Source: an uncultured bacterium | GTDB taxonomy: Bacteria; Verrucomicrobiota; Kiritimatiellia; RFP12; UBA1067 | Direction of reading: 5' to 3' | Length of the DNA: 64,000 nt | NCBI GenBank assembly: GCA_902770045.1 | Contig: CACXRO010000017.1 | Coordinates: forward strand, 9,369-73,368 | Shown here: positions 5,318 to 56,359 of the stretch, one piece after another | Layout: every line of letters starts with the position of its first letter | Numbering within the stretch: position 1 is the stretch's first letter | Notes under the pieces: generated by a model | What the model saw: the letters and a program-made list of their open reading frames with translations, nothing else | Told to the model about the DNA's origin: nothing | Database searches by the model: none | Translations under genes and position numbers: made by a program

Positions 5318-5336
5318 CAAGTTGGAGTTGTAGTAA

Positions 5337-7721: not shown

Positions 7722-7740
7722 GGACACAGCGGATAATTCC

Positions 7741-29906: not shown

Positions 29907-30691
29907 GCAAACGCCCTTTCTGCATTGGCGAAGGTCAACGCCGCGAAGTCGTCCGCCGCCATGCCGCGCCGCGCCGCGAGGAATTCGCAGGTGTGGCGCA
30001 CGAAGGCCGGCTCGTTCACCTTGCCGCGCAGCGGCACCGGCGCGAGAAACGGCGAGTCGGTCTCGATCAGGATGCGGTCGTCGGGCACGACCGCCGCGGC
30101 GGCGCGCACGTTGTCCGCCAGCCTGAAGGTGACGATGCCCGAGAAGGAAATGTAGAAGCCGAGGTCGAGGAACTCCTTCGCCGCCTCGGGCGTGCCGGTG
30201 TAGCAGTGGATCACGCCGCGGGACGGAACCTCGCGCAGCAGCGCGAGCGTGTCGTCGTCCGCCTCGCGGGTATGGATGATCACCGGCAGACTGCGCTTTG
30301 CCGCCTCCTCGAGCTGCGCGGCGAAGAGCCTGCGCTGCGCTTCGCGCGTCTCGGGCGAGTAGTGGTAGTCGAGTCCGATCTCGCCTATTGCTCGTGGGGG
30401 GTGTTCGGGATTCACACAGAGGCACAGAGAAACAGAGGAGTGTTTTTGAGATTGTGGATGGCCGGGGGAGTTGACCTGATCTCGATCAAAGCCAGTGGCG
30501 AAGCAGACCTTCGGCATGCCTTCGCCGGACGCGGCGACCTCCGCCGCCAGCTCCGCCGCGGCGTTGAGCGCCGGGCTCCCGCCGACCGCCATCACCGCCT
30601 CGACGCCCGCCGCGCGTGCGCGCGACAGGATGGCGGCGATCTCCACCGGGGACGCCGTCTCGAAATGGCAGTGGGTGTCGTAGAGCCTCAT
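29903..30691 (-). CDS. tatD: TatD-family hydrolase
   Basis: DTHCH, IGEIGLDYHY, IIHTREA, IHCYTG, IETDSPFLAP. Repeat-derived insert at about 30385-30475. Confidence 0.93.
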   Translation of the reverse strand: MRLYDTHCHFETASPVEIAAILSRARAAGVEAVMAVGGSPALNAAAELAAEVAASGEGMPKVCFATGFDRDQVNSPGHPQSQKHSSVSLCLCVNPEHPPRAIGEIGLDYHYSPETREAQRRLFAAQLEEAAKRSLPVIIHTREADDDTLALLREVPSRGVIHCYTGTPEAAKEFLDLGFYISFSGIVTFRLADNVRAAAAVVPDDRILIETDSPFLAPVPLRGKVNEPAFVRHTCEFLAARRGMAADDFAALTFANAERAFA

Positions 30692-32274
30692 CGCTCGAGG
30701 AATCTCCCGGCGTTGCGGCGCCCGGCTGCGCCCAGCGTGGCGACCGCGCCGTTGACGAGGACATGCCGCATCCCCTCGGCGAAGCGGTGCGGCTCGGTGT
30801 AGGTGGCGGGGGAGCGGAACTCCGACTCGCTCCAGACCGCGATGTCCGCGAAAGCGCCGCGCTCGATTGTCCCGCGCCCCCGGATCCCGAACCGCCGCGC
30901 CGGCACCGATGTCATGCGCGCTACCGCCGCCTCGCGCGTCACCCCGAGCGCCCGCAGCCGGCGGTAGAACTCCGGCATGGTGCCGTAGGCTCGCGGGTGC
31001 GGATGGTCGGCGCCGAGCGGACCCCACGGCGCGCGCAGCGACGCGTCCGAGCCGGGGACGATCCAGTCTCGCGAGAGGATCTTGTCGAGGTTCTCCTCGC
31101 TCATCCCGAAGAAGAACGCGCCGGTGCGGCACCGGTCAAGCTCGAGGATGCGGCAGATTAGTTCACCGGGGGAAATTGCCGAGGATTTGTTTTTTTGCCA
31201 CAAAGGACACAAAGGGTCGCAAAGTTCCGCAACCGTTTTGCCGCAGAGCGTCTTGGTCTCGGGATGCCAGGCGCCGCCGATCATCACCTGCGACCAGTCG
31301 CGCGGCGAGGCGTTCAGTTCCGCCACGATGCGCGCACGCGCCTCCGGGTCCGCGAGCCGCGCCATCTCCGCCGGAGCCGCGCCTTCCTGCGCCCAGTCCG
31401 GGAGCACGATGTCGAGGTCAGTCCCCGCGGCGCAGAACGGGTAGCGGTCGGAGCCGAGGAGGAGTCCGTCCGCGACGGCGCGGTCGATGCGCCCGAGGAC
31501 CGCGTCGATCTTGTGCCAGTTGCGCTCGCCGCTCGTCTTGAGATGCGAGATCTCCGCGCGGATGCCGGTCGCCCTGACGAGGTCGAGGACTTCGTCGATC
31601 GCCTCGAGAATCGCGTCGCCCTCGGAGCGCATGTGCGTCGCGTAGAAGCCTCCCTTCGCCGCCGCCGCCTTCGCGAGCGCGACGACCTCCTCGTTCGTCG
31701 AGTAGCGCCCGGGCTGGTAGATAAGCCCGGTGGTGAGCCCCCACGCGCCCGCGTCCAGCGATTCCTCCAGAAGCCGCTGCATCCGCTTGAGCTCGTCCGG
31801 CTCCGCAGGCCGCGCGGCATATCCCATCGCCGACGAGCGCAGCGTGTTGTGTCCCACGAACACGGCGGTGTTGATGGCGGGCTTGGCGGACTCCACCGCC
31901 GCGCGGTACTCGGCAAAGGACCGCCAGGTGAGCCGTTCGCCGAGGAGCGACGCCCAGTCGGAGGAGAGCCTCGCCTCGCCGTAGCGCGGCGCGGCGCTGC
32001 CGCCGCACTGTCCGTTGATCTCGGTGGTGACGCCCTGCGCAAGCTTAGAGGGCGCGTCGGGCTCGAGGACCAGGTACGCGTCCGAATGTGCGTGCGAGTC
32101 GATGAACCCTGGAGTGACCAGACACCCGCTCGCATCGACCACCTCGGCGCCGCCCTTGTTCCCCACGCCGCCGCGCACGACGTCGGCGATACGGTCGCCT
32201 TCAACTACCACATCGCCCGGGAAGGACTCCATCCCGGTGCCGTCGACTATCGTTCCGTTGGCTATGATGATCAT
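30688..32274 (-). CDS. N-acyl-D-amino-acid deacylase (D-aminoacylase, amidohydrolase 3)
   Basis: PGFIDSHAHSD, QGVTTEINGQCG, THMRSEG, SHLK, HPRAYGTMP. Confidence 0.9.
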   Translation of the reverse strand: MIIIANGTIVDGTGMESFPGDVVVEGDRIADVVRGGVGNKGGAEVVDASGCLVTPGFIDSHAHSDAYLVLEPDAPSKLAQGVTTEINGQCGGSAAPRYGEARLSSDWASLLGERLTWRSFAEYRAAVESAKPAINTAVFVGHNTLRSSAMGYAARPAEPDELKRMQRLLEESLDAGAWGLTTGLIYQPGRYSTNEEVVALAKAAAAKGGFYATHMRSEGDAILEAIDEVLDLVRATGIRAEISHLKTSGERNWHKIDAVLGRIDRAVADGLLLGSDRYPFCAAGTDLDIVLPDWAQEGAAPAEMARLADPEARARIVAELNASPRDWSQVMIGGAWHPETKTLCGKTVAELCDPLCPLWQKNKSSAISPGELICRILELDRCRTGAFFFGMSEENLDKILSRDWIVPGSDASLRAPWGPLGADHPHPRAYGTMPEFYRRLRALGVTREAAVARMTSVPARRFGIRGRGTIERGAFADIAVWSESEFRSPATYTEPHRFAEGMRHVLVNGAVATLGAAGRRNAGRFLER

Positions 32275-32520
32275 TTTCGTGGTTCGTGGTTTGAGATTTG
32301 GACAGGATTTACAGGATTAACAGGATTGGAGGCTGGGGTGTTGGCTCGGGCGGCGTCGATTTTCGCTATGAGCTCATTCGCCCACGCGACTGCGTCGTCA
32401 ACCGACGAGAGCACCAACGACGACATTCGCCATTGCCCGCGACAACCGCACGGGATCGCCGCTCCGGTCGATCTGGTTTATGGCCTTGATGAGGTTGACA
32501 CAGGTGTTCGGACGCTTCAT
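32271..32520 (-). pseudogene. Internally deleted AbiEii-like toxin remnant
   Basis: ATG 2 nt after the AbiEi stop gives MKRPNTCVNLIKAI...RAMANVVVG and stops after 40 codons. An adjacent frame gives VDDAVAWANELIAKIDAA, a C-terminus-like segment. Confidence 0.6.
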
Positions 32521-32522
32521 CT

Positions 32523-33047
32523 TCAGAACTCTTTATTGAGCATTTCCACCTCGCTGCTGCGGAGCAGACCCTTGCGTGTCGCGTCGCCTATCGCGGCGCG
32601 CAGACGTTCCGTCATCAGCTTTTCTCGACATTCAAGGATGACCTTGGCGAGGTTCTGACATCTTATCCCCTCGAAAACGTCCACTTCGCCCCCACTTGGC
32701 ATCTTCACCAGTTCAATCCATTTCGGCAACGCCCTGCGGACTCTGCGTTCTGCTGCGACCCGAACGCGCAGCGGGTTAACCATCGCCAGATTGTGCATGG
32801 CAAGAACGCTTTCCCCCCAAAGCGCAGCGTCTTTCCCCACTATCGCAACCGCTTCGGCATATCGATTGTACTCAGTGGGCAGATAATGCTCAATTCGATA
32901 GACCCCGCGCCCAAGTCTGGTCAAGCGGCCGAGCTTCACCCATTCAGCAAGGTCCTTCCGCCGAATTCCCAATGCCTCCGCCTCGGCGGTCGTGACAAGG
33001 CCGTAGTTTCCTATCGCCAGTTCACAAAGTTTATCGTATAGTCGCAT
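32523..33047 (-). CDS. Type IV TA system AbiEi-family antitoxin
   Basis: YGLVTTAEA...G...RLGRGVYR N-terminal winged-helix signature. Confidence 0.85.
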   Translation of the reverse strand: MRLYDKLCELAIGNYGLVTTAEAEALGIRRKDLAEWVKLGRLTRLGRGVYRIEHYLPTEYNRYAEAVAIVGKDAALWGESVLAMHNLAMVNPLRVRVAAERRVRRALPKWIELVKMPSGGEVDVFEGIRCQNLAKVILECREKLMTERLRAAIGDATRKGLLRSSEVEMLNKEF

Positions 33048-33124
33048 GTCATTTTGTCCCCTTTGAAGGGTACATTTTGTCCTGATGCCGCGTAGTATAC
33101 CATATTTTGGCAGGAATTATCAAC

Positions 33125-33172
33125 TGCAATTGTCAAAAGGTTCCCTACAAAGGGAACCTTTTGACAATTGCA
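33125..33172. promoter_or_regulatory. 22-bp perfect inverted repeat just upstream of the abiE promoter
   Basis: TGCAATTGTCAAAAGGTTCCCT-ACAA-AGGGAACCTTTTGACAATTGCA. The minus-strand TTGATA-18-TATACT promoter lies at 33094-33123. Confidence 0.7.
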
Positions 33173-33508
33173 AATTGCCGCGTTATTTGCCGCGCAATCT
33201 GCCGCGGAGGTCAGGCGGCATTGTCAGCGGCTTACACATTCAGCCTGTAACGCCAATAGCCAGGTTCGTGTTTGTTGTAGTAGTCTATTGCCGCAAGAAA
33301 CCCCTCGCGGGTCTCTGGATGCATCGAGCTCTTCATGTAGTCGCCCGCGCGTATGCCTCGGACAGCACTTCGGATGACGGGACGGGATGGGCTTCACCAT
33401 AGGGACATTATACAAATGGGGAATTATCGCCGCAATCGCCGCAATGAGATCACGGTGCTGACGAAATCCAGTCTGCACTTGCCAACGTCTAAAGACAAGC
33501 ATATGCAG

Positions 33509-34579
33509 TTATGGTTCTGGCCAACGCACTCCAATCGGTTCGTAATCCATGCGTAGTGGCTTTGTGCAAAGGTTGTTCTTCATGTCCCATTCAAGATTGC
33601 GGTCAAGTGATGTTGGGTTCAGATAATACAGGAAACTCGCGCCATTGAAACCGCTTTTGTCCGTCCCCCTGAATCTGAAATCGCCGTATATCTTGCCATA
33701 ATACGCTTCAATAAGGTTACCCCTGTCGTCGTATCTTGACCTAACACGAAAGCAGTAGCAGCAATCATCGTTGCTTTCCGTATAGTACTCAGGATATATT
33801 ACAGGCCCTGATGTATTCTTCTTTCGTCGTCCAAATTGCATGACCTTTTCGGAAACATAGCCCGACTCTGGCGCAGTCCTGACTCTTATGCCACAGTTGG
33901 AACCTCTGACAGACTTTTCGACAAGGCCATTCCCCTTGCCAGGAAACTCAATCGCTGAAATGAAATCGTAGAATGTTGTCTTGTGACTTCTCCATATGTT
34001 CAATGCTTCGCCGACTTCCAGTTTCGTTGTGATCGTCATATCCGAATATTTACCTACTCCGTGTGGAGGCAGCCAATCACCTTCCAGAAAATCAAACTTC
34101 AACACGGCGTTGGTTCCGTCGAATCCTCCAACACTTTCGCGTCGGCCGTCCAATATGACACGATTGACATATAACGGAATGGGATGCGCCACGCGTTGAA
34201 GGGCTACCGTGACGACAACATCCTCTGGTTGCCAGATTCTCAACAACGATCTTCTTGTATATTTCGTTCTTCCGCCATGTGCCGCTTCGTAATAACCTTT
34301 GGGTGCCTTATCAACCCAAATACTACTTCTGCCACAGTTTGTCTTTCCTGAAAGCCGACAAAAACCTTGCTTGTCCGTGAATCCCTCTGCTATGTCTGGA
34401 TTAGCTGATTCAGACCAAGCACGCCATCCAATGTCATCTTCAAAGTTTGCAACTATCTTTGCATCCGGCAAAGGAACATGGTTAACTGCATCCTCGACAT
34501 AGATACTCAGATATGCTCTGTCGGCTCTTGCAAGGTAACATGCTAACACTACGTTGAACACTAGCATTGTCTTTTTCAC
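33509..34579 (-). CDS. Secreted protein with carboxypeptidase-regulatory-like N-terminal fold (paralog 1)
   Basis: GTG start with RBS and signal peptide. FDFLEGDWLPPHGVGKYSD and YYGKIYGDF motifs shared with 34958..35941. Confidence 0.65.
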   Translation of the reverse strand: MKKTMLVFNVVLACYLARADRAYLSIYVEDAVNHVPLPDAKIVANFEDDIGWRAWSESANPDIAEGFTDKQGFCRLSGKTNCGRSSIWVDKAPKGYYEAAHGGRTKYTRRSLLRIWQPEDVVVTVALQRVAHPIPLYVNRVILDGRRESVGGFDGTNAVLKFDFLEGDWLPPHGVGKYSDMTITTKLEVGEALNIWRSHKTTFYDFISAIEFPGKGNGLVEKSVRGSNCGIRVRTAPESGYVSEKVMQFGRRKKNTSGPVIYPEYYTESNDDCCYCFRVRSRYDDRGNLIEAYYGKIYGDFRFRGTDKSGFNGASFLYYLNPTSLDRNLEWDMKNNLCTKPLRMDYEPIGVRWPEP

Positions 34580-34821
34580 TGGCTTTCTCCCGCTACGATT
34601 TTGTGGAATATGAAATTGACATAAAAGAAGGCTACATTGCAAATGTCAGAATGATGCCATTGACGACGTCGCTGGACAATTCGCTCTGAAGGCCAGTATG
34701 ACAATCCGTCGGGGGAAAGCTCTATGTTTCCATCAAGTACATTCACAATCGGATTTCTCCCCGCCGCGAAACTTGCCGCGGAGATTGCGTTGCGTAACTT
34801 CGCCTTGAGCGTGGCGCGGCA

Positions 34822-34875
34822 TCAAAGGTATTTGGCGGTGAAGGACTCTTTGCAGGCGCGGACCTGGTCGATCGG
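34822..34875 (-). repeat. Exact 54-bp copy of the uvrA 3' end including the stop codon
   Basis: Identical to 43283..43336. Confidence 0.95.
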
Positions 34876-34951
34876 AACTGCGAGGGAACGCCTCGGCGAG
34901 CATTTCAAATGCCAAAGACGCCAACAATAACAGACAACCAAGAGTTTTCAT
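34876..34951 (-). pseudogene. Signal-peptide stub of a truncated secreted-protein gene
   Basis: MKTLGCLLLLASLAFEMLAEAFPRS breaks off directly into the uvrA 3' copy. Confidence 0.55.
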
Positions 34952-34957
34952 GCAAAG

Positions 34958-35941
34958 TTACTGCTTTTTGTTTAGATTGCGAAGAACAGCACGTAGAGAA
35001 GTGCCGTCTTCAATATTGATATTGTTTTCAATCGGATTAAAACACCCATCGCTCAAGATCATGAACTCGGTATCGGACATCCATCGTCCAAGTATTTTCC
35101 CATAATGTGCTCCTGTTAAATGGCCTTGTTCGTCCACACGTGTACGCGTGCGAAACACTAAATACGAGTCGCTGTCAAGAAAATCCCAGTGTCTCGGCTG
35201 ACCAGGACTTTGTTCGCTCACAAAGGAAAATGATGTTCGATATGTTGCATTTGAATTGGCTTCATATTCCGTTGTCAATCTCGAGGACTTGTCCTCTTTC
35301 ATCAGATATGCACCGGCATAAGGATTATTCGTAAAAGATACATCCATAACATATCTGTAATCATGCATGCCTCTTTCTTCCGAAGAAAACCTTAGCAGCA
35401 CATCACAATTGCGTCCTTTCCCATATGGATAAGCCCAGTCGGCATATTCAAAGTCAAACCCAATCCATTTGTTAAATTCCGGGATGCGGCAACTGCGTAG
35501 CGAATCAGGGAATGCGCTAAGTTCTCCTGGATTTCGTATTTCTTTAAGTACTACAGTTCGTTTTTCTCCATAAGGCAACCATTTCCCATCGGCTATCTGT
35601 GGCATAGCTTCTTTGATAGGATACGATATGGAGAACTCAGACGGATAGTATCCGCGTTTCCTAATGCCGCATCTAAGTCTGTGCGTACACTTCCCAATAA
35701 CAACGTAGTCACCGTTCGTGTTGGTCGCGCCTTCTATCGAAGAAAAGTCGTTTAAACTATCGCCCGTTTGCATTCCGCCACGCAACCTGGCCTGCGGAAC
35801 AGGATTCCCATTGGAATCCACAACATGCAAACAGATATTCACCTTTGCCCCATTACGGGTCGCGTTGTAAAGTGTCAAATCCGGCTGTGCCGAAATCGCC
35901 ATCAACGGAATGACGGCAAAGATGCGAAACGCTGTTTTCAT
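34958..35941 (-). CDS. Secreted protein with carboxypeptidase-regulatory-like N-terminal fold (paralog 2)
   Basis: RBS AGGAGA, signal peptide; GFDFEYADWAYPYGKGRNCD, FRTRTRVDEQG, HYGKILG. Confidence 0.65.
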   Translation of the reverse strand: MKTAFRIFAVIPLMAISAQPDLTLYNATRNGAKVNICLHVVDSNGNPVPQARLRGGMQTGDSLNDFSSIEGATNTNGDYVVIGKCTHRLRCGIRKRGYYPSEFSISYPIKEAMPQIADGKWLPYGEKRTVVLKEIRNPGELSAFPDSLRSCRIPEFNKWIGFDFEYADWAYPYGKGRNCDVLLRFSSEERGMHDYRYVMDVSFTNNPYAGAYLMKEDKSSRLTTEYEANSNATYRTSFSFVSEQSPGQPRHWDFLDSDSYLVFRTRTRVDEQGHLTGAHYGKILGRWMSDTEFMILSDGCFNPIENNINIEDGTSLRAVLRNLNKKQ

Positions 35942-36028
35942 TGCATGTCTCCTCTTGTTACGAGTTGTTCGTAAAGTTTGTACACATAGAAATACGCCAT
36001 GTCTTTCATGTCGGAATGAAGCCACGAC

Positions 36029-36754
36029 TCAATGACCATCGCCTCCACGATTCCCTTTTGACGCCCTCTTCCTGCCTTCCTCTACCGAAGTGCCTTTTGC
36101 GTTCACACGCAGCGCAGCATCCTCCATGCCTGAACCGGGCGGAAGGCTGCTAGCCTCCCGAAGAAGCGTGTCAAACGCAACTGCGACACCGTATAAACCC
36201 AGCTCTCTGCATCCTGCAGCATTTTCGGGGGATCCAAACAGCGACAACGCCTTTCCGTTTCTGGCGAAGAGAATTAAATCACTACCAATCATATCCGCCT
36301 CGATCAGCTCCGTCCTGCCGCCGCCAACCCGGGCTATGCAAAATTCACCGACAAGGTTTGTTGATACGCCAAGTCTGCCAAGCATGAAATCCTGCGGCAT
36401 TGAAGTGGTGAAGTGTTGCCGTAACATGGCATTCGCCGACTCACCAGGCAAAGACGACTCCCACAGGATTCCACTAACAATACGCTTCCCGCTTCTTGTG
36501 CATACGGTAAACTCGGTGACGCTGGAGTACTTATTCTCTTCAGTGCGCAACTCAGACACATCATAGTCAAACAGCAGAAATCTCTGCTGTTTATGAGTGA
36601 ACATGGGGCTTCCCTTGCGAAATGCTTCATTGTTGCGCAAAGCAAAATGGTCGACCGTCTTTTCGCGACAAACATCAAACGGATCTATAGTTTTGTCATT
36701 GGCAAAGAGAACCGCGCTGACGGCCAGAATCGTGAACATTGGCGTGAATCTCAT
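36029..36754 (-). CDS. Secreted hypothetical protein (partner or immunity candidate of the upstream effector)
   Basis: Signal peptide MRFTPMFTILAVSAVLFA; RBS AGGAGGG; follows the 36770 ORF by 15 bp. Confidence 0.6.
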   Translation of the reverse strand: MRFTPMFTILAVSAVLFANDKTIDPFDVCREKTVDHFALRNNEAFRKGSPMFTHKQQRFLLFDYDVSELRTEENKYSSVTEFTVCTRSGKRIVSGILWESSLPGESANAMLRQHFTTSMPQDFMLGRLGVSTNLVGEFCIARVGGGRTELIEADMIGSDLILFARNGKALSLFGSPENAAGCRELGLYGVAVAFDTLLREASSLPPGSGMEDAALRVNAKGTSVEEGRKRASKGNRGGDGH

Positions 36755-36769
36755 TAATTTCCCTCCTGT

Positions 36770-38281
36770 TTATTTGACAACCTGGACAGAAGTTGTGTAA
36801 ATATTGCTTATTGTCCCGGCAGCATTTGCTTCGCTTGTCGTCGAGACATCAATGGCAACAGACACATATCCCACCTCGTCTAGAGAGCCAAGCTGCGGTC
36901 CAGCACAGGCATCAAACACCTTTCCGCTCAACGAGACAAACATATGATTCAGAAATCTAGAGCGTTCCGGCTCCACAAGGTCAACACCTGTAAGTTTCTC
37001 GTTGTTGTATAAAGGGTAAAAGGGATTATTGCACATTCCCTCTCCAACGAGATTCAAAGGATTAATGTAACCAAATGGCATCATAAATCGACAATGCGCA
37101 TTCACCCCAAACAAACGGGCGAGCGTAGCTACTCCGCCCGCCTGATCATAGCAGTTGACAACATTTCCACTTGTGTTGTGCTTCAAAGATGACTTGTTCA
37201 TGTACTCCGTCAACCTGAACTCAATTACGCCCGCAGTGCTCGACATATATTTCGGGCGCCCGGCCCCTGCAATTGCATTCGTCGCAACACCGATGTCGTA
37301 CGTCAGCCCGTGCCCGCTGTGCAGATATGTCGTAATCGCCGCGAGCGCAGCCTTGTCCGTGTTTTTCCCCTGAGCGCCCGCCTTGACGATCGCGAACTCC
37401 AGCGCGTTCGTCCATGCGTTCTTCTGATTGCCGTAGTCGTTGGCCCAAGGCGGCTTGGGCTCGCCGAGTATCGTGTAGACGAGATGCGGGCCCGAGTCGT
37501 TCATCTTGCAGCCAGACTGGCCATTGACACTGTCCGCCGACCAATTCAAAACTCCCCCGCCGCTTCGGTCTATGCAGCCGAGCGTCCTGCTCGACATCGC
37601 GAACTCAACATATTCCGGCGACGAAACTCCCCCCGAAAACGCGATGTTTGTCGGCAGAAGGCTGGAAAGCGAACCGCCTGCCCCGGCACATGTCGCCCGT
37701 ATCACTGCAGAAGTTATGAAGCCAGACGCCTCGAACCTCGCCTTCACGGTCGCCGCGCGGTTTGTCGTGTAGCAGAACGGTTCGTTCGTCACAACACCGC
37801 CGTCCTCAAACCACTCACCGTTCGAGACGTCAATCTTACCGGCTGAATCCTCGAAACAGCGCCTTATGTTGATGGCATCGTGGTTGGAAGACGAAGTGTC
37901 GTGGTTGAACTTGATGTTCGTCACGCGGAGCTTAACGCTGGTAAACTTTGCGACATCGACCGCTCCGCTTGATTCGTGCTCGGCCTTGATTTCCCGGTCG
38001 CGAAGCCCGCCGGACTGGCCGTTGATTTCGGTGGTGATGCCCTGCGAAAGTTTCGAAGGCGCATCCGGCTCGAGCACGAGGTAGGCATCGGAGTGGGCGT
38101 GGGCGTCGACAAAGCCGGGGGTGACGAGACAACCCGAAGCGTCGACTACTTGAGCATCGCCCTTCGCGGCAATGCCGCCGGGAACGATGTCGGCGATGCG
38201 GTCGCCCTCGACGGCGACGTCGCCCGGGAAGGCCGGTCTTCCCGTGCCGTCAATGATGGTTCCGTTGGCGATTATGGTCAT
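36770..38281 (-). pseudogene. Chimeric ORF: 92-aa D-aminoacylase N-terminal relic fused in frame to a ~410-aa transglutaminase-like C-terminal module
   Basis: Codons 1-92 (38006..38281) are 74/92 identical to the 30688..32274 protein. The remainder has NCYDQA, FLNHMFV and FDAC (Cys-His-Asp). Confidence 0.75.
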
Positions 38282-38304
38282 TGTTTTCCCAGAACCCCCA
38301 AGTC

Positions 38305-39582
38305 CTATGGCCTTAATGCGCCTATTGGGCAAACGATTATCCCGTCCTTGCGGCGATAGGCGAAATCGCCAACGGCAGTCAGCACCATCTGAAAAGACGG
38401 CTTCTTCATCTTGCCGTCGTCGATCTTTGCAGAAAGCCTGTTCAATGTTGCAACGCCTTTTTCTATGAGTTCCTTGCCGCCGATTTTTACTTCCACCAGC
38501 GCATAGCGCCCATTGCGCAGATGCAACACTGCGTCGCATTCAAGACCTGATGCATCGAGATAGTGGGCTACCGAACCGGAAAGCGCGTCCATGTAGACGC
38601 GAAGGTCTCTCACGGCCATTGTCTCGAAAAGAAGTCCGTAGGTCTTCAGGTCGTTCATCAGGTCTTCCGGCCCAAGCCCCAATGACGCAACGGCAACGGA
38701 AGGATCCACAAAATAGCGCGTGTCACCGGTTCTTATCGGCGTCTTGCAGCGAAGGTTCGGACACCACGCCGGCATGTCCTCGATAACAAACAGCTTTTTA
38801 AGCGCAGACACATACGACACGACGGTGTCAACCGAGCACGGTCTCGCCTCATTCGCCTCGATATCGGCCTTTATGACGGAATAGGCGGACTGCGTCGCCT
38901 GGAGCCGCGCATACGAGCGCATGATTCGCCTCGCTCGGCCTTCATCCCTGTTTACCTTGTCAACCCGCGATATGTCGCGCTTCACGGTCGCGTCAACATA
39001 GGAAAACGCCCTTTTGAGAGCTACCCTGCCAGAGAGATTGCAAGCGTATGGCCAACCGCCGCGACAAAGAAGGAATGCCAACTCCTCCAAATCCGGGCAT
39101 GCCGATTTCGCGCCGGTGACGTCTTCTCCTGCAAACAAAGCAGATAGACTCGCCTCGCCCGACGACTCGCACGACTCCCACAACGTCATCGGCCTCATCT
39201 TGAGCCAAGAGAAACGCCCTGCTCCGGAATGCCTGATTTCTTCGTCATCCGCAGGAACGGCAGAACCTGTGAGAATGTATCGACCCGGAGCATCCATGTG
39301 ATCGACATTGTAGCGCACGGAATCCCATATTGCCGGAGCCAACTGCCACTCGTCGATAAGCCGCGGATATTCGCCATCAAGTATTCTCTCTGGCTTTGTC
39401 CTGGCAAGGATGATGTTCTCTTCCATCTTGCCAGTCTCGTCGATGTATATCGCACTTTTGGCAGCTTGCTCTGCCGTTGTCGTCTTACCACACCATTTTG
39501 CACCTTCAATAAGAACGGCACCAGCTCCTGACAGTTCCTCTTGGAGAAGTCGGTCACAAATTCTACTTTTATATGATTTCAT
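38305..39582 (-). CDS. AAA_14 ATPase with DUF4143 (PD-(D/E)XK-like) domain
   Basis: IEGAKWCGKTT, LIDEWQLAP, YILTGS, YFVDPS, ECDAVLH, LVEVKIG. Confidence 0.9.
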   Translation of the reverse strand: MKSYKSRICDRLLQEELSGAGAVLIEGAKWCGKTTTAEQAAKSAIYIDETGKMEENIILARTKPERILDGEYPRLIDEWQLAPAIWDSVRYNVDHMDAPGRYILTGSAVPADDEEIRHSGAGRFSWLKMRPMTLWESCESSGEASLSALFAGEDVTGAKSACPDLEELAFLLCRGGWPYACNLSGRVALKRAFSYVDATVKRDISRVDKVNRDEGRARRIMRSYARLQATQSAYSVIKADIEANEARPCSVDTVVSYVSALKKLFVIEDMPAWCPNLRCKTPIRTGDTRYFVDPSVAVASLGLGPEDLMNDLKTYGLLFETMAVRDLRVYMDALSGSVAHYLDASGLECDAVLHLRNGRYALVEVKIGGKELIEKGVATLNRLSAKIDDGKMKKPSFQMVLTAVGDFAYRRKDGIIVCPIGALRP

Positions 39583-39770
39583 GCGTGGATTATAGCATAT
39601 TAATGAGTAAGCCGTCAATGACCAATCCTCAAATTATTGCATTCTCGTTCCTCAATTTGTTGGCTTAATATTCCTTGATTTGTTGGCATTTCGTTCGGCG
39701 CTTTGGCGCGTTTTCGTTCGGCGCTTTGGCGCAATTGGGCTCCACTTCAGGGACTGTCCCCCACATTCTG

Positions 39771-40167
39771 CGGCGACGGTCATCGCGAGGACGTCGGCGA
39801 TGTTCTTGCCGGCGTAGGCGACTTCAAGCGTTTCGGCGTTGAAGCGGCGGCCGCCGCACTGCTCGCAGGTGACGTAGACGTCCGGGAGAAAGCTCATTTC
39901 AAGCTTGCGCACGCCGTCCCCGCCGCAGACCTCGCAACGTCCGCCCTTCACGTTGAAGGAGAAGCGCCCGGCGGTGTAGCCACGCGCGCGCGCGGCCTCG
40001 GTCTTGGCGAAGAGCTCGCGGATCTCGGAGAAGAAGCCGACGTAGGTCGCGGGATTGGAACGCGGGGTGCGGCCGATCGGCGACTGGTCGATCTCGACGA
40101 TCTTGTCGAAGTTCTCGGCGCCGGCGAGCTTGGCGAAACGACCCGGGACGTCCTTGGCGCGGTAGAA
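39771..40167 (-). pseudogene. Stranded ~397-bp internal fragment of a divergent uvrA allele
   Basis: Ungapped alignment to 43711..44107 with about 37 mismatches by manual count (~91%), mostly synonymous. Confidence 0.9.
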
Positions 40168-40188
40168 AGAGCTGCGGGGTCTGTCCCC

Positions 40189-40610
40189 GATGAATGACCA
40201 CTTGGGAAACAAAGGAAATACGGCAGTCCCGTCTGAGAATGTATCCACACGATTGCACGAAGGGCATGATTGCCATCTTTCGTCAACACTGTAATGCGAA
40301 CTTCCCAGATCTTGTCTCCGATCTTTGCGTAATCCTTTACAGAAAAACCAAGCTCAACTAGAATCGTTTTTGAAGGACCTTCCATTGCCGAGAGACCTGA
40401 TGACTTATGAAAATATGCATCCATCGCAAGGCGTGACGCACATTCTGCGTCTGAAACCAGTGCGCCAGGAAGTTTGACCGTCGAGGCCTCATGAAATACT
40501 GGAAGCAACAAATTTCCTCCTGACAGCAATGGCCCGCACGCCAGCAAAACCACGAGAAATGTTAAGATCGAACGCCACCGCATCCACTCTTTCAGATTGC
40601 TATCTGTCAT
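40189..40610 (-). CDS. Secreted partner protein (3' end cut at a REP-like motif)
   Basis: Overlaps the upstream effector stop. Signal-like [17 protein letters not shown]. Native sequence ends at about FPSGHS, where GGGGTCTGTCCCC and the uvrA relic begin. Confidence 0.55.
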
Positions 40611-43248
40611 ATCGCACCTCCCGAATTTCCAATCCTGGTTGATTACTCTTTATGAGTAAAACATTGACAATAACTTTCAAATCAATTTTGTCGCCATCAT
40701 CATTCAAGTCGCAATTTACCATAGGTTCATCAATAGGCAACTGAAATGGGCCAATATAGAAACCATCTATTGACTGCGCTTCGAGTTCTTCAAGACTAGA
40801 GTACTGTACTCCATACGAAGGATCGTAATATTTGCCTTCGATAACCACTTGGTGATTATTGAACAACGATGCCGGATTGTGATTCCCCTGTCCTGGAATG
40901 CCAACGGCATCGTTTACTTCTGCATATTTCCACCGATACTCCGTCAAACCAATAAACCCGGAATCCAATATATTCAAGTACGGATACTGGGGGTAGCCAC
41001 TCAAACCCACCCCAGAAAAAGTCCAGTTCTTTACCAAGAAGCCAACATAGTTCTGCGGAATTCCAGGCGGAGCAATTGGGTAGAACACAACATATTCATT
41101 TTTGTCGTCAATACCTTGAACCTTACGCAAATCTATAAACAAGGAAGCCCACGCCCCACACTGGCCATCTCCATGCAACAGAAGAGTTGCTGTGTCCACA
41201 TTAGCGCAATTATATGATGCGTAATATGTAAGTTGTACTCCATCAACCCTTCGGACATCCCGATCAGTAAACTCGTCCCAAATTTTTGCCGTGCAATTTT
41301 GCGCCGACACCTCGCCTTGTGCGTTTCTACAGCCGATATGTGCAAGCGTGTGATATACAGTTGTTAGCGGATCGCCGAGTGTGATGTAAGTTTGGTTGCT
41401 GCATGTCCCGCCATCTAGCCATGTCTTCAATCCGTTCATGCTTATTGAAATGCTCCAGTCAATCAGCATCGGGTCAAAGAAATCTACCTTATTGGCGAAC
41501 GGAATGTCGCATTCCAAGTCTACAATCGTCAATTGATTCCCATTTTTCATTACTGCCGTCTCAGGAAAATCAAGTCCATTGGGACCATCACCCTTTACGG
41601 TAATCGCCCAAGGCAGCTCCGAAGGCTCGACTATCCACTTTGCGGATACTTTCATTTTCGAATTCCGAGTAAAACATACTGGATAAGCCCTGTCTCCCGC
41701 GTCGGAAGCGTCACCATCCAGCGGAAATGAATTATCCTGCCAATGCGGTGCCGTATAATTCATGCTCCCGTCATCTTTTGTGACAAGGTGATACTTTGCC
41801 CCGCCAAAGGTCACCTCCTTGAGATTTAGTTTTATGCATGTATACTTCGCCATATCCTTCGCCCCGCTATCTGGATGTTCTATCTGGATTATTTCATCTC
41901 TACATGTACCCGACACAGTATGTCCATGAAGGGCGAACTCCTGACCCGCCAGGATACGAGCCGGAAAGTCGAATTCCACTGGCATCTCGTAGTACTTACC
42001 GCTGCGCTTTACATACAATGATTTCTCCGGAGTAGTTATCGTCACAACCTCTCCATCCGGCAGGTCGCGCGGCTCGCAGGTGATAGACACTGCGACAAGG
42101 GCATTCGTCCCCTCCTCGGTCCACCGCCCGTCCGCCGCGTCCGCGACATAAGGAATGAACGCGCCCTCGGTCTCCTCCTTGTCCTCTCCGACGCCGCCGA
42201 TCGTGACGTCGACCTTCACGACCGTGAAGTTGGTGGTGCACGTCGCCGAGTCCGAGTGGCCGGAGCCGTCGGAAACCGTCGCCGACACTGTCAGCGGCTC
42301 CGCAAGAAACGCGGCGCTGGCGGTGTCGTTGCTGGGCGCGAAGTAGCTCGCCTCCGCCGTGTCCGTGCGCCCGGTGAACGAGCAGATGCCGCAGTCCGAC
42401 CAGGAATAGGACGTGCCGTCCGCCGCCGGGTCGACCAGCGCGGCCGCGACGTTGACGACCGGGCTGGCCCTCCCGGCGTCCGTCCGGTCGAGTCCAAGGT
42501 AGTCGGGCCGCGAGACCGACAGCTCGTGGACGTCGACAACGGAATTGGTTGCCGCGCTGCAGACGCATCTGGAGCAGTCGTTGGACCCGACCACGCGGAA
42601 GGATATCCTCTGCCCCACGCCCTTGGCCATCGGCCCGGCCCAGACCGAAGCCGGAACGACGACGCCGGCGCCGGCCGCCCTCCAGCCATAGGACGTCGGA
42701 TACGTGTCGATGTATTCCTTCACCACCTGTGGGTTGTGCGTGGCTCCGCATATCGGGCACGGGTGCCATGTCGTCACGATCACATGCACCCCGTTGGTCA
42801 CCACCTCCACTGCCGAAGAAACCGAGACCTCCGTGTTGGTCTCCGGGAGCGCGTACAGCCTGACGATCTTCTCCTCGGAGACCGTCGCGCGGATCTTCGG
42901 GGCCGAGACGTGGTTGGTGACTACGGTACACGAAAACACGCAGTCCTCGTAGGGGATGTGCTCCTCGTCCTCGCCGAGGACGCTCGTGGCGCGGAATGCG
43001 CCGCGCTCCCCGGGGCGGTGGACGAAGGAGACCGACCTCCGCCCGTCCACGCGCCAGCCCACGCGGGCGTCGACCCTGACCGGCACCGGCGAAGTCGCGT
43101 TCGAGAAGTGGATGCGCCCGTCTCCAGCGGCCCGGACGCCAGGCGCGTCGACGACGACAAACGAATTGGCCGCGCGGTCCGCGACGAAGGACCGCGACCG
43201 CCGCCCGCCATGCGGCGGAGGGCCTGCCGGAGAGCTTCTGCCTGACAA
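40600..43248 (-). CDS. Large modular secreted-type protein with C-terminal transglutaminase-like (Cys-His-Asp) domain; 5' end disrupted
   Basis: DGQCGAWA, FNNHQVV and YYDPSYG motifs. High-GC 5' half and low-GC 3' half. The promoter-proximal ATG (43258) is in a different frame. Confidence 0.65.
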   Translation of the reverse strand: MSGRSSPAGPPPHGGRRSRSFVADRAANSFVVVDAPGVRAAGDGRIHFSNATSPVPVRVDARVGWRVDGRRSVSFVHRPGERGAFRATSVLGEDEEHIPYEDCVFSCTVVTNHVSAPKIRATVSEEKIVRLYALPETNTEVSVSSAVEVVTNGVHVIVTTWHPCPICGATHNPQVVKEYIDTYPTSYGWRAAGAGVVVPASVWAGPMAKGVGQRISFRVVGSNDCSRCVCSAATNSVVDVHELSVSRPDYLGLDRTDAGRASPVVNVAAALVDPAADGTSYSWSDCGICSFTGRTDTAEASYFAPSNDTASAAFLAEPLTVSATVSDGSGHSDSATCTTNFTVVKVDVTIGGVGEDKEETEGAFIPYVADAADGRWTEEGTNALVAVSITCEPRDLPDGEVVTITTPEKSLYVKRSGKYYEMPVEFDFPARILAGQEFALHGHTVSGTCRDEIIQIEHPDSGAKDMAKYTCIKLNLKEVTFGGAKYHLVTKDDGSMNYTAPHWQDNSFPLDGDASDAGDRAYPVCFTRNSKMKVSAKWIVEPSELPWAITVKGDGPNGLDFPETAVMKNGNQLTIVDLECDIPFANKVDFFDPMLIDWSISISMNGLKTWLDGGTCSNQTYITLGDPLTTVYHTLAHIGCRNAQGEVSAQNCTAKIWDEFTDRDVRRVDGVQLTYYASYNCANVDTATLLLHGDGQCGAWASLFIDLRKVQGIDDKNEYVVFYPIAPPGIPQNYVGFLVKNWTFSGVGLSGYPQYPYLNILDSGFIGLTEYRWKYAEVNDAVGIPGQGNHNPASLFNNHQVVIEGKYYDPSYGVQYSSLEELEAQSIDGFYIGPFQLPIDEPMVNCDLNDDGDKIDLKVIVNVLLIKSNQPGLEIREVRYDR

Positions 43249-43282
43249 GGAACTTCATGTGTGAATTATACCATAATTGCGG

Positions 43283-46183
43283 TCAAAGGTATTTGGCGGT
43301 GAAGGACTCTTTGCAGGCGCGGACCTGGTCGATCGGGCCTTCGCAGACGACGCGGCCGCCGGCGTCGCCGCCGCCGGGGCCGAGGTCGACGATCCAGTCG
43401 GCGCACTTCATGACGTCGGTGTTGTGCTCGATCACGATCACCGTGTTGCCCTGGTCCCGGAGGCGCAGGAGAAGCTTCATCAGCTTGGCGACGTCGTCGA
43501 AGTGGAGCCCGGTGGTGGGCTCGTCGAGGAGGTAGAGCGTGCGTCCGGTCGAGCGCCGCGAAAGCTCCGTCGCGAGCTTGATGCGCTGGGCCTCGCCGCC
43601 GGAGAGGGTGGTGGCGCTCTGCCCGAGCTGGATGTAGCCGAGGCCGACGTCGTCGAGGGTGGCGAGCTTCCGCGCAAGCGAGGGAATCTTCGCAAAAAAG
43701 TCCTTCGCCTCGGCGACGGTCATCGCCAGGACGTCGGCGATGTTCTTGCCGGCGTAGGCGACTTCCAGCGTCTCGGCGTTGAAGCGACGGCCTCCGCACT
43801 GCTCGCAGGTGACGTAGACGTCGGGCAGGAAGCTCATCTCCAGCTTGCGCACGCCGTCGCCGCCGCAGACCTCGCAGCGCCCGCCCTTGACGTTGAAGGA
43901 GAAGCGCCCCGCGGTGTAGCCGCGCGCGCGCGCCGCCTCGGTCTTGGCGAAGAGCTCGCGGATCTCGGAGAAGAACCCGACATAGGTGGCGGGATTGGAG
44001 CGCGGGGTGCGGCCGATCGGCGACTGGTCGATCTCGACGACCTTGTCGAAGTGCTCCGCGCCGGTAAGCTTCGCGAACTTCCCCGGAACCTCCCGCGAGC
44101 GGTAGAAGCGGCGCATGAGCGCGCGCTTGAGCGTCTCGTCGACGAGCGTCGACTTGCCGGAGCCGGAGACGCCGGTTACCACCGTGAACGCGCCGACGGG
44201 GAAGTGCGCGGTGATGTTCTTGAGATTGTGCTCGCGACAGCCGGAGATGGTGAGGTGGTTTAGTGGTTTGGCAGTTTGGTGGGATAACACACGGATTTGT
44301 TCGCGACTAACGTCGCTCACATTTTCAGAATCGCGAGGTTGAATCTTCTTCCTGCCTGTCAAATAGTCGGCAGTGAGCGACTTCGCCTTGAGAAGTCCCT
44401 TGAACGGGCCCTGGTACATCACCTTGCCGCCTTCGCGGCCGGCGCCGGGACCGAGGTCGACAATCCAGTCCGCCGCGCGCATCATCTCTTCGTCGTGCTC
44501 GACGACGACGACGGTGTTGCCGCGGTCGCGGAGCCCCTTGAGGGCGGAGATGAGCCGATCGTTGTCCCGCGGGTGGAGCCCGATCGTCGGCTCATCGAGG
44601 ACGTAGAGGACCCCGGTCAGACCCGAGCCGATCTGCGTTGCCAGGCGGATGCGCTGCATTTCGCCGCCGGAAAGCGACGAGGCCGCGCGGTCGAGGGTGA
44701 GGTAGTCGAGCCCGACGTCAAGCAGGAACTGGAGGCGACGGCAGATCTCCGCCACGATTTCGCCCAGCCCCGAAAGGTTTGTTGCTTGGGGTGCGGTTTT
44801 TTTAGCCGCATAGGACGCAAAGGTCGCAAAGGGTGCGTTCTCTGCGTTCTTTGCGTTCTTTGCGGCTAAACACAACCCATTGAAGAAGGCTAGGGCTTCG
44901 CCGACCGGCATCGCCATTACCTCGACGATGGTCCTGCCGGCGACGGTGGCGGCACGGGAGAACTCGTTGAGGCGGGCGCCGTGGCAGGTCGGGCAGGTGC
45001 GGTAGCTCTGGTACGTCTCCCACTTCGCGCGCGTCTCCTCGTCCTCCGCCTCCTCGAGCCGCTTCTGCAGCGTGGCGAGGACGCCCTCGAAGGGACGGTC
45101 GACGGAGCGCCAGGGCAGAATCAGGTCGTCCTTGAACCCGTGCATCAGGTCGTGGCGGAACTTGGCGGGCAGCTTTTCGTAGGGAGTGGAGAGCTTCACC
45201 TTGTACTGGCGCGCAATCTGCTCCAGGAGCGCGTTGTAGTACATGATCGCGTTGTGTCCGGCGCGGCGCCAGGGGTGGATGCACTCGCGCAGCGGGAGCG
45301 TGCGGTCTGGCACCACCAGCTCCTCGTCGAAGTAGTAGAGGTGGCCGAGGCCGGAGCAGGTCGGGCACGCGCCGTAGGGCGAGTTGAAGGAGAACGACCG
45401 CGGCTTCAATTCGTCGAAGGAAAGTCCGCACTCGACGCAGGCGTTGAGCTCGGAGAACACGGTCGGACGGTCGGGCTTGTCCGCCAGCTCCACCGACATC
45501 ACGCCCTTGCCGGTCTTGAGGGCCAGCTCTACCGAGTCGGTGAGGCGGGTGCGGTCGCAGGGAAGGACAATCCGGTCGACGACGACGTCGATCGTGTGGG
45601 CCTTCTTCTTGTCGAGCGCCGGGACCTCGTCGATCGGATACACCGTGCCGTCGACGCGCACGCGGGCGAACCCGTTGCGCGCGAGCGCGGCAATCGTCTC
45701 CTCGTGGCGTCCCTTCTTGCCCTTGACGACCGGCGCGTAGAGGATTATCCGGCCCGGCTCTCCGGCGGCGAGGGTGTCCACTATCTGTTCGGCGGACTGG
45801 CGGGTCACCGGCCGGCCGCACTTCGGGCAGTGGGGCGTCGCGGCGGATCCGTAGAGGATGCGCAGGTAGTCGTGGATCTCGGTGACGGTGGCGACGATCG
45901 AGCGCGGGTTGCCGCTGGTGGTGCGCTGCTCGATCGAGATCGCGGGCGAGAGGCCCTCGATGCGCTCGACGTCCGGCTTCTGCATCCGGTCGAGGAACTG
46001 CCGCGCGTAGGCCGAGAGCGACTCCACGTAGCGGCGCTGGCCTTCGGCGTAGAGGGTGTCGAAGGCGAGGGACGACTTGCCCGAGCCGGAGAGCCCGGTG
46101 ACCACGGTGAGCGAGTCGCGGGGGATGACGACGTCCACGCCCTTGAGGTTGTGGACCTTCGCGTTCCTGATGGTGATGTCCAT
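43283..46183 (-). CDS. uvrA: Excinuclease ABC subunit A
   Basis: Two ABC cassettes (GLSGSGKSS; GVSGSGKST), LSGGEMQRI and [10 protein letters not shown], zinc fingers. Two repeat-derived in-frame inserts. Confidence 0.98.
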
Positions 46184-46204
46184 GGCGCCGCGTCCCTCCC
46201 GCGC

Positions 46205-47734
46205 CTACTGCAGGTTCTTCAAGTCGAGCGCGAGCAGGAACTGCGGGTTCGACTGGGTCTTCTTGAGCGAGTTCAGCACCGAGCGCATGGCGCTTTCGGT
46301 GCCGGCGGCGGCGAGGTAGCGGCGGAGCGCCCAGGTCTTCTCGAGCTCGAGCGGGTCGAGGAGGAGGTCCTCCTTGCGGGTGCCGGACTTCTCGATGTCG
46401 ATCGCCGGGAAGATGCGCTTGTCGGCGAGGCCGCGGTCGAGCACGATCTCCATGTTGCCGGTGCCCTTGAACTCCTCGAAGATCACCTCGTCCATGCGCG
46501 AGCCGGTGTCGACGAGGCCGGTCGCGATGATGGTGAGCGAGCCGCCGCCCTCGATGTTGCGGGCCGCGCCGAAGAAGCGCTTGGGGCGGTGCATCGCGAG
46601 CGCGTCGACGCCGCCGGTGAGGATCTTGCCGGAGTGCGGCTGCACCGTGTTGTAGGCGCGGGCCATGCGCGTGAGCGAGTCCATGAGGATGATCACGTCG
46701 CGGCCGTTCTCGACCTGGCGCTTGGACATCTCGAGCACCATCTCGGTGACGTTGACATGGTGCTGCGGCTCCTCGTCGAAGGTGGAGGAGAGCACCATCG
46801 CCTTCGTGTTGCGCTGCATGTCGGTGACCTCCTCCGGGCGCTCGTCGATCAGCAGGATGATGAGCATCGCCTCGGGATGGTTCTTCGAGATGGCGTTGGC
46901 CATCTTCTGCAAAAGCACCGTCTTGCCCACGCGCGGCGGCGCGATGATGAGGCCGCGCTGGCCGAAGCCGATGGGCGTGAAGAGGTCGACGACGCGGGTG
47001 GAGAGCTCCTTCGGGTCGGTCTCGAGGATTATCCGGCGCGTCGGGAAGGTGGCGGTGAGGTTCTCGAAGTGGATCACGCGCGCGGCGGCGGACGGCTCCT
47101 TGCCGTTCACCGAGACCACGGCGCCGAGGCAGAAGAAGCGGTCGCGGTCGCGCGGGTCGCGCACCGGTCCCTCGACGATGTCGCCGGTGCGGAGCGCGTG
47201 GCGGCGGATCTGCTGCTGGGTGACGAACACGTCCTCTGGGCAGGCGAGGAAGTTGTTCTTCGCGGAGCGCAGGAAGCCGTGGCCCTCGCGCACGATCTCC
47301 AGGCAGCCGGAGGCGAGCACCGCGCCGCCGCGGGCGAGGTAGGAGCGGATTGCCGCGAAGATGAGCTCGTGCTTGCGGTAGCTGCCGAGCTCCTCGGGGT
47401 CGGCGCCGGGCATCATCCGCTCGACGATCGCGGGCGCTGGCCAGGTCTGGATGTCGGCGAGGCGGTACTCGGGCAAATCCGGGTTGCGGTTGGGGTTGAC
47501 GGCCGGCGCGGCCTCCGCGGCGACTGGCTCGGCCGGGAGCGGCGCGTTGAGGAGCGGATTCACCGACTCCTCGCCGTTTGCCCCGCGGATCGGGGAGTTG
47601 TTGGCCTTCGCCGGGCCGGGCGCGCGGTTGAACTTCTTGAACGTGCGGTACTGTTTGGGCTTTGCCGGCCCGTTCTGGCGAGCGCCGCCCTTGGGAGGCA
47701 CCGCGCCCGCGAAAACATCGAGTTCTTCGGACAT
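46205..47734 (-). CDS. rho: Transcription termination factor Rho
   Basis: [49 protein letters not shown]. Confidence 0.97.
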
Positions 47735-54543: not shown

Positions 54544-54597
54544 GTGCGCATTATACCATAATTTCCGGTCCAGTGGTTGAAGCCCGGTGCCTATTAA

Positions 54598-54870
54598 AGT
54601 TGAAAGGTTGAAAAGTTGAAAGGTTGAAAGGCCGCGGCAGATTGCGCGGCGGTTTTGGTTTAACACGCGGATTTGTTCGCGTCTAACGACGCTCACCTTT
54701 CGCGGCGGCGGAAATCTGCCGCGAAAGCCAACACGGCCCGCGGCAAAAATGGTATAATTCACGCGATGAACAACCGTGACAAGTCCGCGCTTGCGCTCGC
54801 CCTCGCCATCGTGGGCGGAATTGCGGCTGGCTTGCGCTACACCCCGCGCCCCGCGGCATATACAGTAAAA
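54598..54870 (+). repeat. Direct repeat S copy 1: TTGAAAGG tandems + 12-mer + palindrome + promoter + signal-peptide stub
   Basis: Aligns with 56071..56359. Contains the stub ORF 54766..54882 (MNNRDKSALALALAIVGGIAAG...). Confidence 0.9.
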
Positions 54871-56008: not shown

Positions 56009-56070
56009 TGACAAAAGGGTTGGACCCTTCTGTATAACGCCGGTTGAAAGGTTGGGCGGAGCCGGTTGAG

Positions 56071-56359
56071 AAGTTGAAAAGTTGAAAGGTTGAAAGGCCG
56101 CGGCAGTTTTGATTAACACGCGGATTTGTTCGCGTCTAACGACGCTCACCTTTCGCGGCGGCGGGAATCTGCCGCGAAGGTTAACACGGAGCGCGGCAAA
56201 AATGGTATAATTCACGCGATGAAACCCCATGCCAAGACCGCGCTTTCCCTCGCCCTCGCCATCGTGGGCGGAATTGCGGCTGGCATGCGCTGTGACGCGT
56301 CCGTGACGGTGGAAACCCCGACGCAGATCAACCCGCGCCCTGCGGCATATACAGTAAAA
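56071..56359 (+). repeat. Direct repeat S copy 2
   Basis: Same order of elements as 54598..54870; stub MKPHAKTALSLALAIVGGIAAG. Confidence 0.9.

Follow-up and report, generated by a model that had tools for sequence, protein, structure and literature searches.

We analysed a 64,000-nucleotide stretch of a metagenome-assembled genome of an uncultured member of the Kiritimatiellia (G000: 87 contigs, 2.27 Mb, about 85% complete), namely positions 9369-73368 of its contig C17, hereafter the window, which holds no ambiguous bases (N). The interval between uvrA and the gene of an Amidohydro_3 amidohydrolase is occupied by an island of about 11 kb (32275-43282) with a guanine-plus-cytosine (GC) content of 43-58% against 65-70% in the flanks, and this island carries three fragments of the same two flanking genes. 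We read the interval as a hotspot at which versions of the locus from relatives were integrated several times, by homologous recombination at the uvrA end and an illegitimate join at the other, leaving stubs of the flanking genes behind, and we put the probability of this reading at roughly two in three. On the minus strand, rho is followed by uvrA, the island, the amidohydrolase gene, tatD and rsmE. The resident uvrA (43283-46183, minus strand; 966 aa) forms the upstream flank and presumably served as the homologous anchor; its product scores above the NCBIfam UvrA equivalog cut-off (NF001503: 1328 bits vs 1147), and the downstream flank (30688-32274, minus strand) encodes the 528-aa amidohydrolase. 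An earlier note on this DNA had named the flanks uvrA and D-aminoacylase; NCBIfam bears out the first name, while the second was left unconfirmed, the protein being an Amidohydro_3 amidohydrolase.

All three relics lie on the minus strand, in the native orientation. An internal uvrA relic (39771-40167) covers codons 693-825 in an open frame and matches the resident gene at 43711-44107 with 90.7% identity over 397 bp. The amidohydrolase relic (38007-38282) consists of the first 276 bp, codons 1-92, and matches 32000-32275 with 75% identity at the nucleotide and 80% at the amino acid level. The terminal uvrA relic (34822-34875), made up of the last 17 codons and the stop, is identical to 43283-43336 (54/54). 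Re-alignment returned the coordinates and identities that the earlier note had given for these relics, and the intact paralogues elsewhere in the genome, which it had named as what would speak against a foreign source, were not found. The genome (2.27 Mb, 85% complete) contains no further copies of the relics, and a paralogue as their source was rejected on that ground. Third codon positions account for most of the differences from the resident genes, 29 of 37 in the internal uvrA relic and 46 of 68 in the amidohydrolase relic, whose frame is open; the protein of the latter is 99% identical to the full-length 531-aa genes P0069 and P0070 from public metagenomes. Decayed local duplicates were rejected because of this third-position bias and the near identity of one relic to full-length genes elsewhere. 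The relics are fragments of foreign orthologues that diverged as working genes.

For comparison we used 117 species of the genus (G numbers), public contigs (L numbers) and public proteins (P numbers). A locus of the type from which part of the island would derive was found on the P0069 contigs L041-L043 from three samples, with the order uvrA (990 aa), DUF4143 ATPase, amidohydrolase. Window positions 38007-39717 (minus strand) are 99.2% identical to this donor-type locus over 1711 bp and comprise a spacer, the gene of an AAA_14/DUF4143 ATPase (38305-39582) and the first 276 bp of the donor amidohydrolase gene; ATPase gene and stub together (1536 bp) differ from the donor type at 4 positions, the first 175 bp at 10. 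The internal uvrA relic is likewise nearest to the alleles of L041 and L042 (93.2-93.5%, against 89.4-90.9% in the resident clade and 90.7% for the resident gene itself), and its first 50 nt carry the donor-type allele signature; of its 27 differences from L041 in 397 bp (6.8%), 23 are at third positions. L041 and L042 are themselves 4% apart in this stretch of uvrA and encode the same amidohydrolase protein. Compared with G019, G047, G078, L041 and L042 in sliding windows of 150 bp, the resident uvrA was 81-100% identical per window, two windows with in-frame inserts being left out of this range; the gene thus reads as a patchwork between lineages, with patches of 99-100% identity common across them. 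The two inserts in the resident uvrA (44792-44879 and 44280-44324) are a 40+40-nt imperfect hairpin of CGCAAAG units in one case and, in the other, a repeat found also at 54656 and 56109, and no part of uvrA varies more from lineage to lineage than these insert regions.

The interval itself varies widely among relatives. The site is empty in G008, G016 and G078, where 8-11 bp separate uvrA from the amidohydrolase gene; it holds a 2.9-kb insert in G047, one ATPase gene in L041 and 11 kb in G000, and species of the genus that are more distant have the two genes at unlinked positions. In the closest species, G019 (uvrA 94% identical at the nucleotide level), cargo blocks with 97.7-99.7% identity to those of G000 stand in a different order on an island that covers at least two contigs: uvrA, the tip B2 behind an MKFL start, 241-aa, 206-aa, A and 307-aa genes, B1, the 54-bp stub with its spacer, and a D-family gene, D'. 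There the stub behaves like a displaced flank, running on past the uvrA stop into the promoter and gene start that naturally lie downstream. Contigs L055-L059 carry B1, the 54-bp stub, the 3' remnant of the 206-aa gene, gene A and AbiEi toward the amidohydrolase gene at 99.2-99.8% identity to G000 and differ from it in the tips upstream of B1; only L055 among them reaches past AbiEi, and its AbiEii is intact. The junction of the 54-bp stub with B1 recurs in G019 and L055-L059, and this stub is an old feature, common to all arrangement variants and to the species G019. The same flanks thus enclose different cargo or an empty site, as at core-gene-flanked hotspots, and the comparison across related genomes that had been proposed as a check recovered empty, 2.9-kb, one-ATPase, 11-kb and reordered versions. 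Furthermore, of a HipA-like gene G047 keeps no more than the final codons (…ASRLEQLSF), directly behind its uvrA stop (L033, G047:C33, 6385-6447), the full gene standing upstream of the amidohydrolase gene in G019 (L014, G019:C30, 642-1871); the hotspot bears in this remnant a further scar of truncated cargo.

Short microhomologies of 6-10 nt were found at all three junctions for which the parent sequences are known. The join of amidohydrolase codon 92 to the linker of a D-family gene shares AGT(G/C)CGG(C/G)GG, about 10 nt and imperfect; the join between the 241-aa gene and B1 (36025-36031) shares 6-7 nt, (T)GAGTCG; and a 632-bp deletion within AbiEii lies between the 9-nt repeats CGTCGTTGG. 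These lengths lie within the 3-10 bp of junction microhomology described for homology-facilitated illegitimate recombination (HFIR; PMC3240628). The boundary at B1 recurs in G019, L055, L056 and L059 with different upstream genes. As regards the second mark of HFIR, a crossover at one end over about 150 bp or more, the donor-type contigs place uvrA beside cargo, and no crossover point is assignable to one event. Insertion may also have been coupled to loss of resident sequence: the N-terminal half of the D-family gene is missing at the fusion junction and the 206-aa gene lacks its 5' part, the recipient before the event having not been found. The claim that several cargo genes are cut at the junctions was borne out for the 220-aa open reading frame (ORF) after D, the D-family gene, a signal-peptide stub and the 206-aa gene, with AbiEii carrying its deletion internally.

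Contigs from at least nine other samples contain the same junctions at 99.8-100% identity, this support consisting of public assembled contigs (k87, k141, scaffolds, Logan). The exact 503-aa protein encoded across the fusion junction is present on 11 contigs. A 78-kb contig of ERZ27280189 is 100% identical over 30000-46999, k87 contigs of ERZ1029110 and ERZ1029114 span 35944-43186, scaffolds of two STEW19 samples, a Logan contig of ERR3220201, ERZ27280185 and ERZ914847 span 34270-40145 or parts of it, and ERZ27280221 joins rho, uvrA and D. An assembly chimera of co-occurring strains, or an origin of the relics as decayed local duplicates, is the explanation to which we give the least credit of all, and it is already largely refuted. 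The genome is indeed a metagenome assembly (87 contigs), rumen samples contain several arrangement variants side by side, and contigs of independent origin end at common positions, namely at 35944, where two k87 contigs stop 86 bp beyond the junction of the 241-aa gene with B1, and at 34268-34270; such shared end points suggest the presence of several arrangement variants in those samples. Nevertheless, every junction recurs in the nine other samples and with different assemblers, and the longest exact words shared by a relic and its resident copy are 41, 13 and 54 nt, with junction overlaps of at most about 10 nt. As these are shorter than the word lengths k87 and k141 by which six of the supporting contigs are named, a de Bruijn graph could not have created the joins. 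Local duplicates, in turn, sit poorly with the mostly synonymous divergence of the relics and with the 99% identity of one of them to full-length genes elsewhere. Two contigs, which may represent further variants or scaffold chimeras, were left out of the evidence: L058 (ERZ914844) joins, in its positions 1-1141, an EamA gene and a foreign amidohydrolase N-terminus at window position 38119, and L051 (ERZ914847) has 123 unrelated bases (1-123) upstream of 38420.

We propose that the uvrA-amidohydrolase interval would be a chromosomal recombination hotspot in a rumen and gut clade of Kiritimatiellia, where incoming DNA from related strains or species with their own version of the locus would pair within uvrA and be joined at its far end at a microhomology, either in the 3' part of the resident uvrA or in resident cargo. 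Each event would displace the former uvrA-end stub, or leave a stub of the donor amidohydrolase start, downstream together with the older cargo, so that the island would grow as a layered record. From a starting state uvrA-'206-A-AbiE-amidohydrolase, a D-family effector operon (promoter, D to B1) would have been joined at uvrA codon 950, giving the 54-bp stub. A uvrA-ATPase-amidohydrolase fragment would then have been joined at amidohydrolase nucleotide 276 to the D linker, giving the fusion ORF and the orphan tip B2, after which a uvrA 3' end with the 882-aa D and the small ORF would have been joined at uvrA codon 693, giving the internal relic. Later microhomology deletions would have trimmed this relic and AbiEii. 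It is the order of events, the one-sided anchoring and the entry of the DNA by transformation that we infer here. The search for competence genes that had been suggested found comEC (C9) and dprA (C14), so genes for DNA uptake are present.

Several results weigh against this scheme. The internal uvrA relic and the segment beside it differ sharply in their divergence from L041 (27/397 vs 14/1711, Fisher p = 3e-11; the ATPase segment is only 0.3% from the donor type), implying a mosaic donor or two events, and a single donor for both was rejected in that simple form. A second copy of the uvrA end was found only in G000 and G019 among the 117 species of the genus, so that stub formation is rare; other extra matches to the uvrA end in the genus were discarded as the internal ABC-domain repeat of uvrA rather than stub-bearing islands. 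None of the predicted intermediate arrangements was seen among the 11 contigs with the fusion gene. In addition, bacteria that cannot be transformed in the laboratory possess comEC and dprA too, and hence their presence says little on transformation. The earlier note had proposed HFIR through repeated uptake of the same locus from different relatives. What is supported of this is that the pieces come from relatives and were probably joined by flank homology on one side and illegitimately on the other, in keeping with the donor-type locus, the third-position bias, the microhomologies and the independent assemblies; not every event need have been classical HFIR. Of the accreting array said to record several donors, serial integration is supported and the equation of one relic with one donor is not, the 54-bp stub being old and shared and the uvrA relic lying 6.8% from a donor type to which the ATPase segment is 0.3% distant.

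For the 54-bp stub, a single crossover of a recircularised fragment is a live alternative. In such a Campbell-type integration a fragment from a relative carrying a 3' piece of uvrA, recircularised or looped out between the 54-bp repeats, would enter by one homologous crossover and duplicate the uvrA piece so that a copy flanks the insert at either end, and a one-sided illegitimate join to the chromosome would not be needed. Direct copies of about 105-117 bp (uvrA end, promoter spacer and MKFL start; 88% identical) enclose the G019 block that runs from tip B2 to B1, and in G000 the 54-bp copies bracket D to B1. In E. coli, duplication of the anchor gene arose from single-crossover integration of recircularised fragments and not by HFIR (PMC3240628). 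However, the internal uvrA relic, which has no gene end, would require extra deletions, the amidohydrolase stub fused to a cargo gene is left unexplained, 54 bp is a short crossover target, and the illegitimate join of the stub behind B1 to uvrA codon 950 would still be needed once, in the circle. We hold this route to be unlikely on balance, if a serious one. A site-specific or transposon-borne island targeting the 3' end of uvrA, with the 54-bp repeat as attachment site, appears very improbable. The direct 54-bp repeat does end at the uvrA stop, and in G019 D' is fused to a weak remnant of a DDE transposase (22.1 bits, cut-off 23). Yet neither Pfam nor PADLOC returned an integrase, recombinase or transposase domain in the scanned G000 island ORFs and no tRNA is present in the window, as the earlier note had claimed; the 54-bp repeat is internal rather than at the far island edge, its copy in G019 continues past the stop into natural downstream sequence, unlike an attachment core, and the internal uvrA and amidohydrolase stubs remain unexplained. 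Hence the combination that marks site-specific integrative islands, a recombinase with attachment repeats at both ends and often a tRNA, was not found here.

A palindromic motif at the internal uvrA relic is not predicted by serial one-sided integration and counts as a further point against it, since the motif caps both relic ends. One copy, GGGGTCTGTCCCC (40176-40188), lies 8 bp from the 5' end of the relic, and the second, GGGGGACAGTCCC on the gene strand (39749-39761), lies 9 bp after its 3' end, within a 53-bp filler (39718-39770) absent from the donor-type locus. The motif, GGGG(A/T)CNG(A/T)CCCC, has 92 sites in the genome, and at this locus it was found in no relative and in no donor type. 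The motif, or a nuclease or recombinase acting on it, might have made the breaks and joins that captured the uvrA fragment, so that the motif would have set the relic ends; in the wider form of this idea a repeat-specific enzyme would cut and rejoin at the motif, and the island junctions together with the uvrA fragment would reflect repeat-guided cassette capture. We consider both forms improbable. Given 92 sites in 2.27 Mb, the chance of a motif within 8-9 bp of both relic ends is about 1e-6. Motif clusters coincide with GC differences of at least 0.10 in 19% of cases vs 5% of random positions and with GC jumps of at least 0.15 in 10% vs 1%, and the 72 clusters of GGG[AT]CNG[AT]CCC in the whole genome adjoin low-GC DNA in 52% vs 16%, the random positions being an imperfect control for a motif that is mostly intergenic. 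The enrichment near islands may accordingly reflect the location of intergenic DNA. Moreover, the other junctions have no motif, no enzyme is tied to it here, and the motifs could have inserted after the junctions had formed.

The cargo, all on the minus strand, begins behind uvrA with a conserved spacer (43256-43282), which contains a TATAAT box together with the ATG at which a conserved MKFL sequence starts and is kept in the alignment of the uvrA ends of G000 and G019 with the relic copy of G019; it is the expression platform of the downstream D-family gene. D itself is an 882-aa ORF (40600-43248) out of frame with the MKFL ATG. It has a native-like N-terminal domain (41908-43248; 66.6% GC), a linker (aa 449-481) and a C-terminal tip of 44.6% GC. 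Its full-length relatives P0057 and P0058 start with MKF and a signal peptide, whereas the D ORF opens with a TTG out of frame with the MKFL ATG (43204-43258) and has no signal peptide, unlike P0057; damage to the 5' end of the resident gene is therefore possible. D is followed by a small ORF (40189-40610, called at 220 aa), which has lost its 3' end and whose frame enters the uvrA relic. The product of this ORF is possibly a partner protein; no homologues were found outside this arrangement, nor was the parent sequence of its junction, and all contigs extending past the exact D protein enter the same downstream sequence. The ATPase of the donor-like segment matches the PADLOC candidate defence family PDC-S01 (1.5e-57).

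Downstream of the ATPase gene, the fusion ORF (36770-38281, 503 aa) combines in frame the amidohydrolase stub, a linker and the tip B2. Its linker is homologous to that of D, and B2-like tips stand behind a D-like N-terminus in the full-length relatives P0002, P0057, P0058 and G081; thus the common linker and these relatives identify B2 as an orphan tip. The AlphaFold model of B2 has a pLDDT (predicted local distance difference test) score of 87.8, its best PDB matches are transglutaminases (Foldseek E = 4e-6, template modelling (TM) score 0.3-0.37), and Cys285, His354 and Asp365 are invariant in 29 homologues, a predicted structure that suggests a transglutaminase-like fold. B2 is followed by a 241-aa secreted protein (36029-36754), the same pair standing directly behind uvrA in G019, and by B1 (34958-35941), a 327-aa secreted protein whose gene is conserved at the end of the D operon in every arrangement variant. 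A 25-codon signal-peptide stub (34876-34951) is what is left of a gene once present after B1 and cut by the join to uvrA codon 950. L055-L059 have the D N-terminus and B1 in common and differ in between, so part of the variability is exchange of tips between the D N-terminus or linker and B1, and not flank-derived. Conserved N-terminus and linker, variable tips and an orphan tip, the features of a polymorphic locus, were all found.

Beyond the terminal uvrA relic, 31 bp (34791-34821) without a match in G019 precede a block 99.3% identical to that species (33447-34790), which comprises the 3' remnant of the 206-aa gene and gene A (33509-34579); the 206-aa gene is intact in G019 and has lost its 5' part in G000. 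The last segment (32275-33446) is an AbiE remnant with its promoter, an intact AbiEi (32523-33047; Pfam 2.3e-11, PADLOC 7e-48) and the two ends of AbiEii, which is reduced to 36 N-terminal codons and the C-terminal end by the 632-bp deletion. An AbiEi followed by an intact AbiEii, as in an AbiE pair, is therefore not found in G000, and AbiEii is intact in L055 and G043. A perfect palindrome (33125-33172) overlaps the TTGACA/TATACT promoter before AbiEi and, by its position, is probably an operator through which the antitoxin regulates its own synthesis. Neither Pfam nor PADLOC gave a family for D, the 241-aa protein, B1, A or the G019 cargo, and the 220-aa and 241-aa ORFs downstream of the tips had no family match. 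The window has other low-GC islands as well (5208-6212, 7725-8035, 54591-54838, 56065-56291 and 62885-63690), which hold repeated leader-like segments (83-93% identical) and the 12-nt tandem arrays CGCGGCAGTTTG; no relics of the flanking genes were found in them.

The D locus resembles the polymorphic toxin loci of Rhs and CdiA in its conserved N-terminus and linker, its variable low-GC tip and the small gene downstream. Rhs loci and CdiA-CT/CdiI orphans form arrays of orphan toxin tips, and similarly B2 stands without an N-terminus downstream of the main gene, the same tip occupying the expression site behind uvrA in G019. In contrast to Rhs and CdiA, there is no Pfam match, the tip is predicted to be transglutaminase-like, toxicity, secretion and immunity would be putative here, and the orphan tip is fused to the stub of a housekeeping gene and not to a fragment of a toxin gene. 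The locus also recalls the minimal mobile elements of Neisseria, core-gene hotspots which normally undergo clean two-sided homologous exchange and leave no relics of the flanks. Both have the same two core genes around varying cargo, an empty site, no integrase and recombination in the flanks, whereas the three flank stubs and truncated cargo seen here point to one-sided or illegitimate events. HFIR was described for Acinetobacter, Streptococcus pneumoniae and Pseudomonas stutzeri transformed in the laboratory (de Vries & Wackernagel 2002; Prudhomme et al. 2002; PMC3240628). Foreign DNA linked to a homologous anchor, microhomologies of 3-10 nt and no need for mobility genes are shared with our locus, and loss of resident sequence with the insertion may be as well. 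Unlike those experiments, the present case is read from scars in an uncultured member of the Kiritimatiellia, comprises several stacked events and has kept anchor-gene stubs, a trace usually missing after single events in the laboratory.

The mechanism is thus of an already known kind of recombination, with the motif remaining a puzzle, and the value of the finding is that of a well-documented natural example in an uncultured lineage, of which one donor type and several intermediate arrangements could be recovered from public metagenomes. Annotators should take it as a caution: fusion ORFs like the 503-aa "amidohydrolase" are scars of recombination. The locus displays turnover of defence genes (AbiE and the PDC-S01 ATPase) together with that of a polymorphic transglutaminase-like protein, and it gives studies of transformation and one-sided recombination in Kiritimatiellia a defined locus to work on. 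Moreover, it provides direct sequence evidence that a rumen lineage without known genetics exchanges chromosomal DNA across species at a fixed site and without mobile-element genes.

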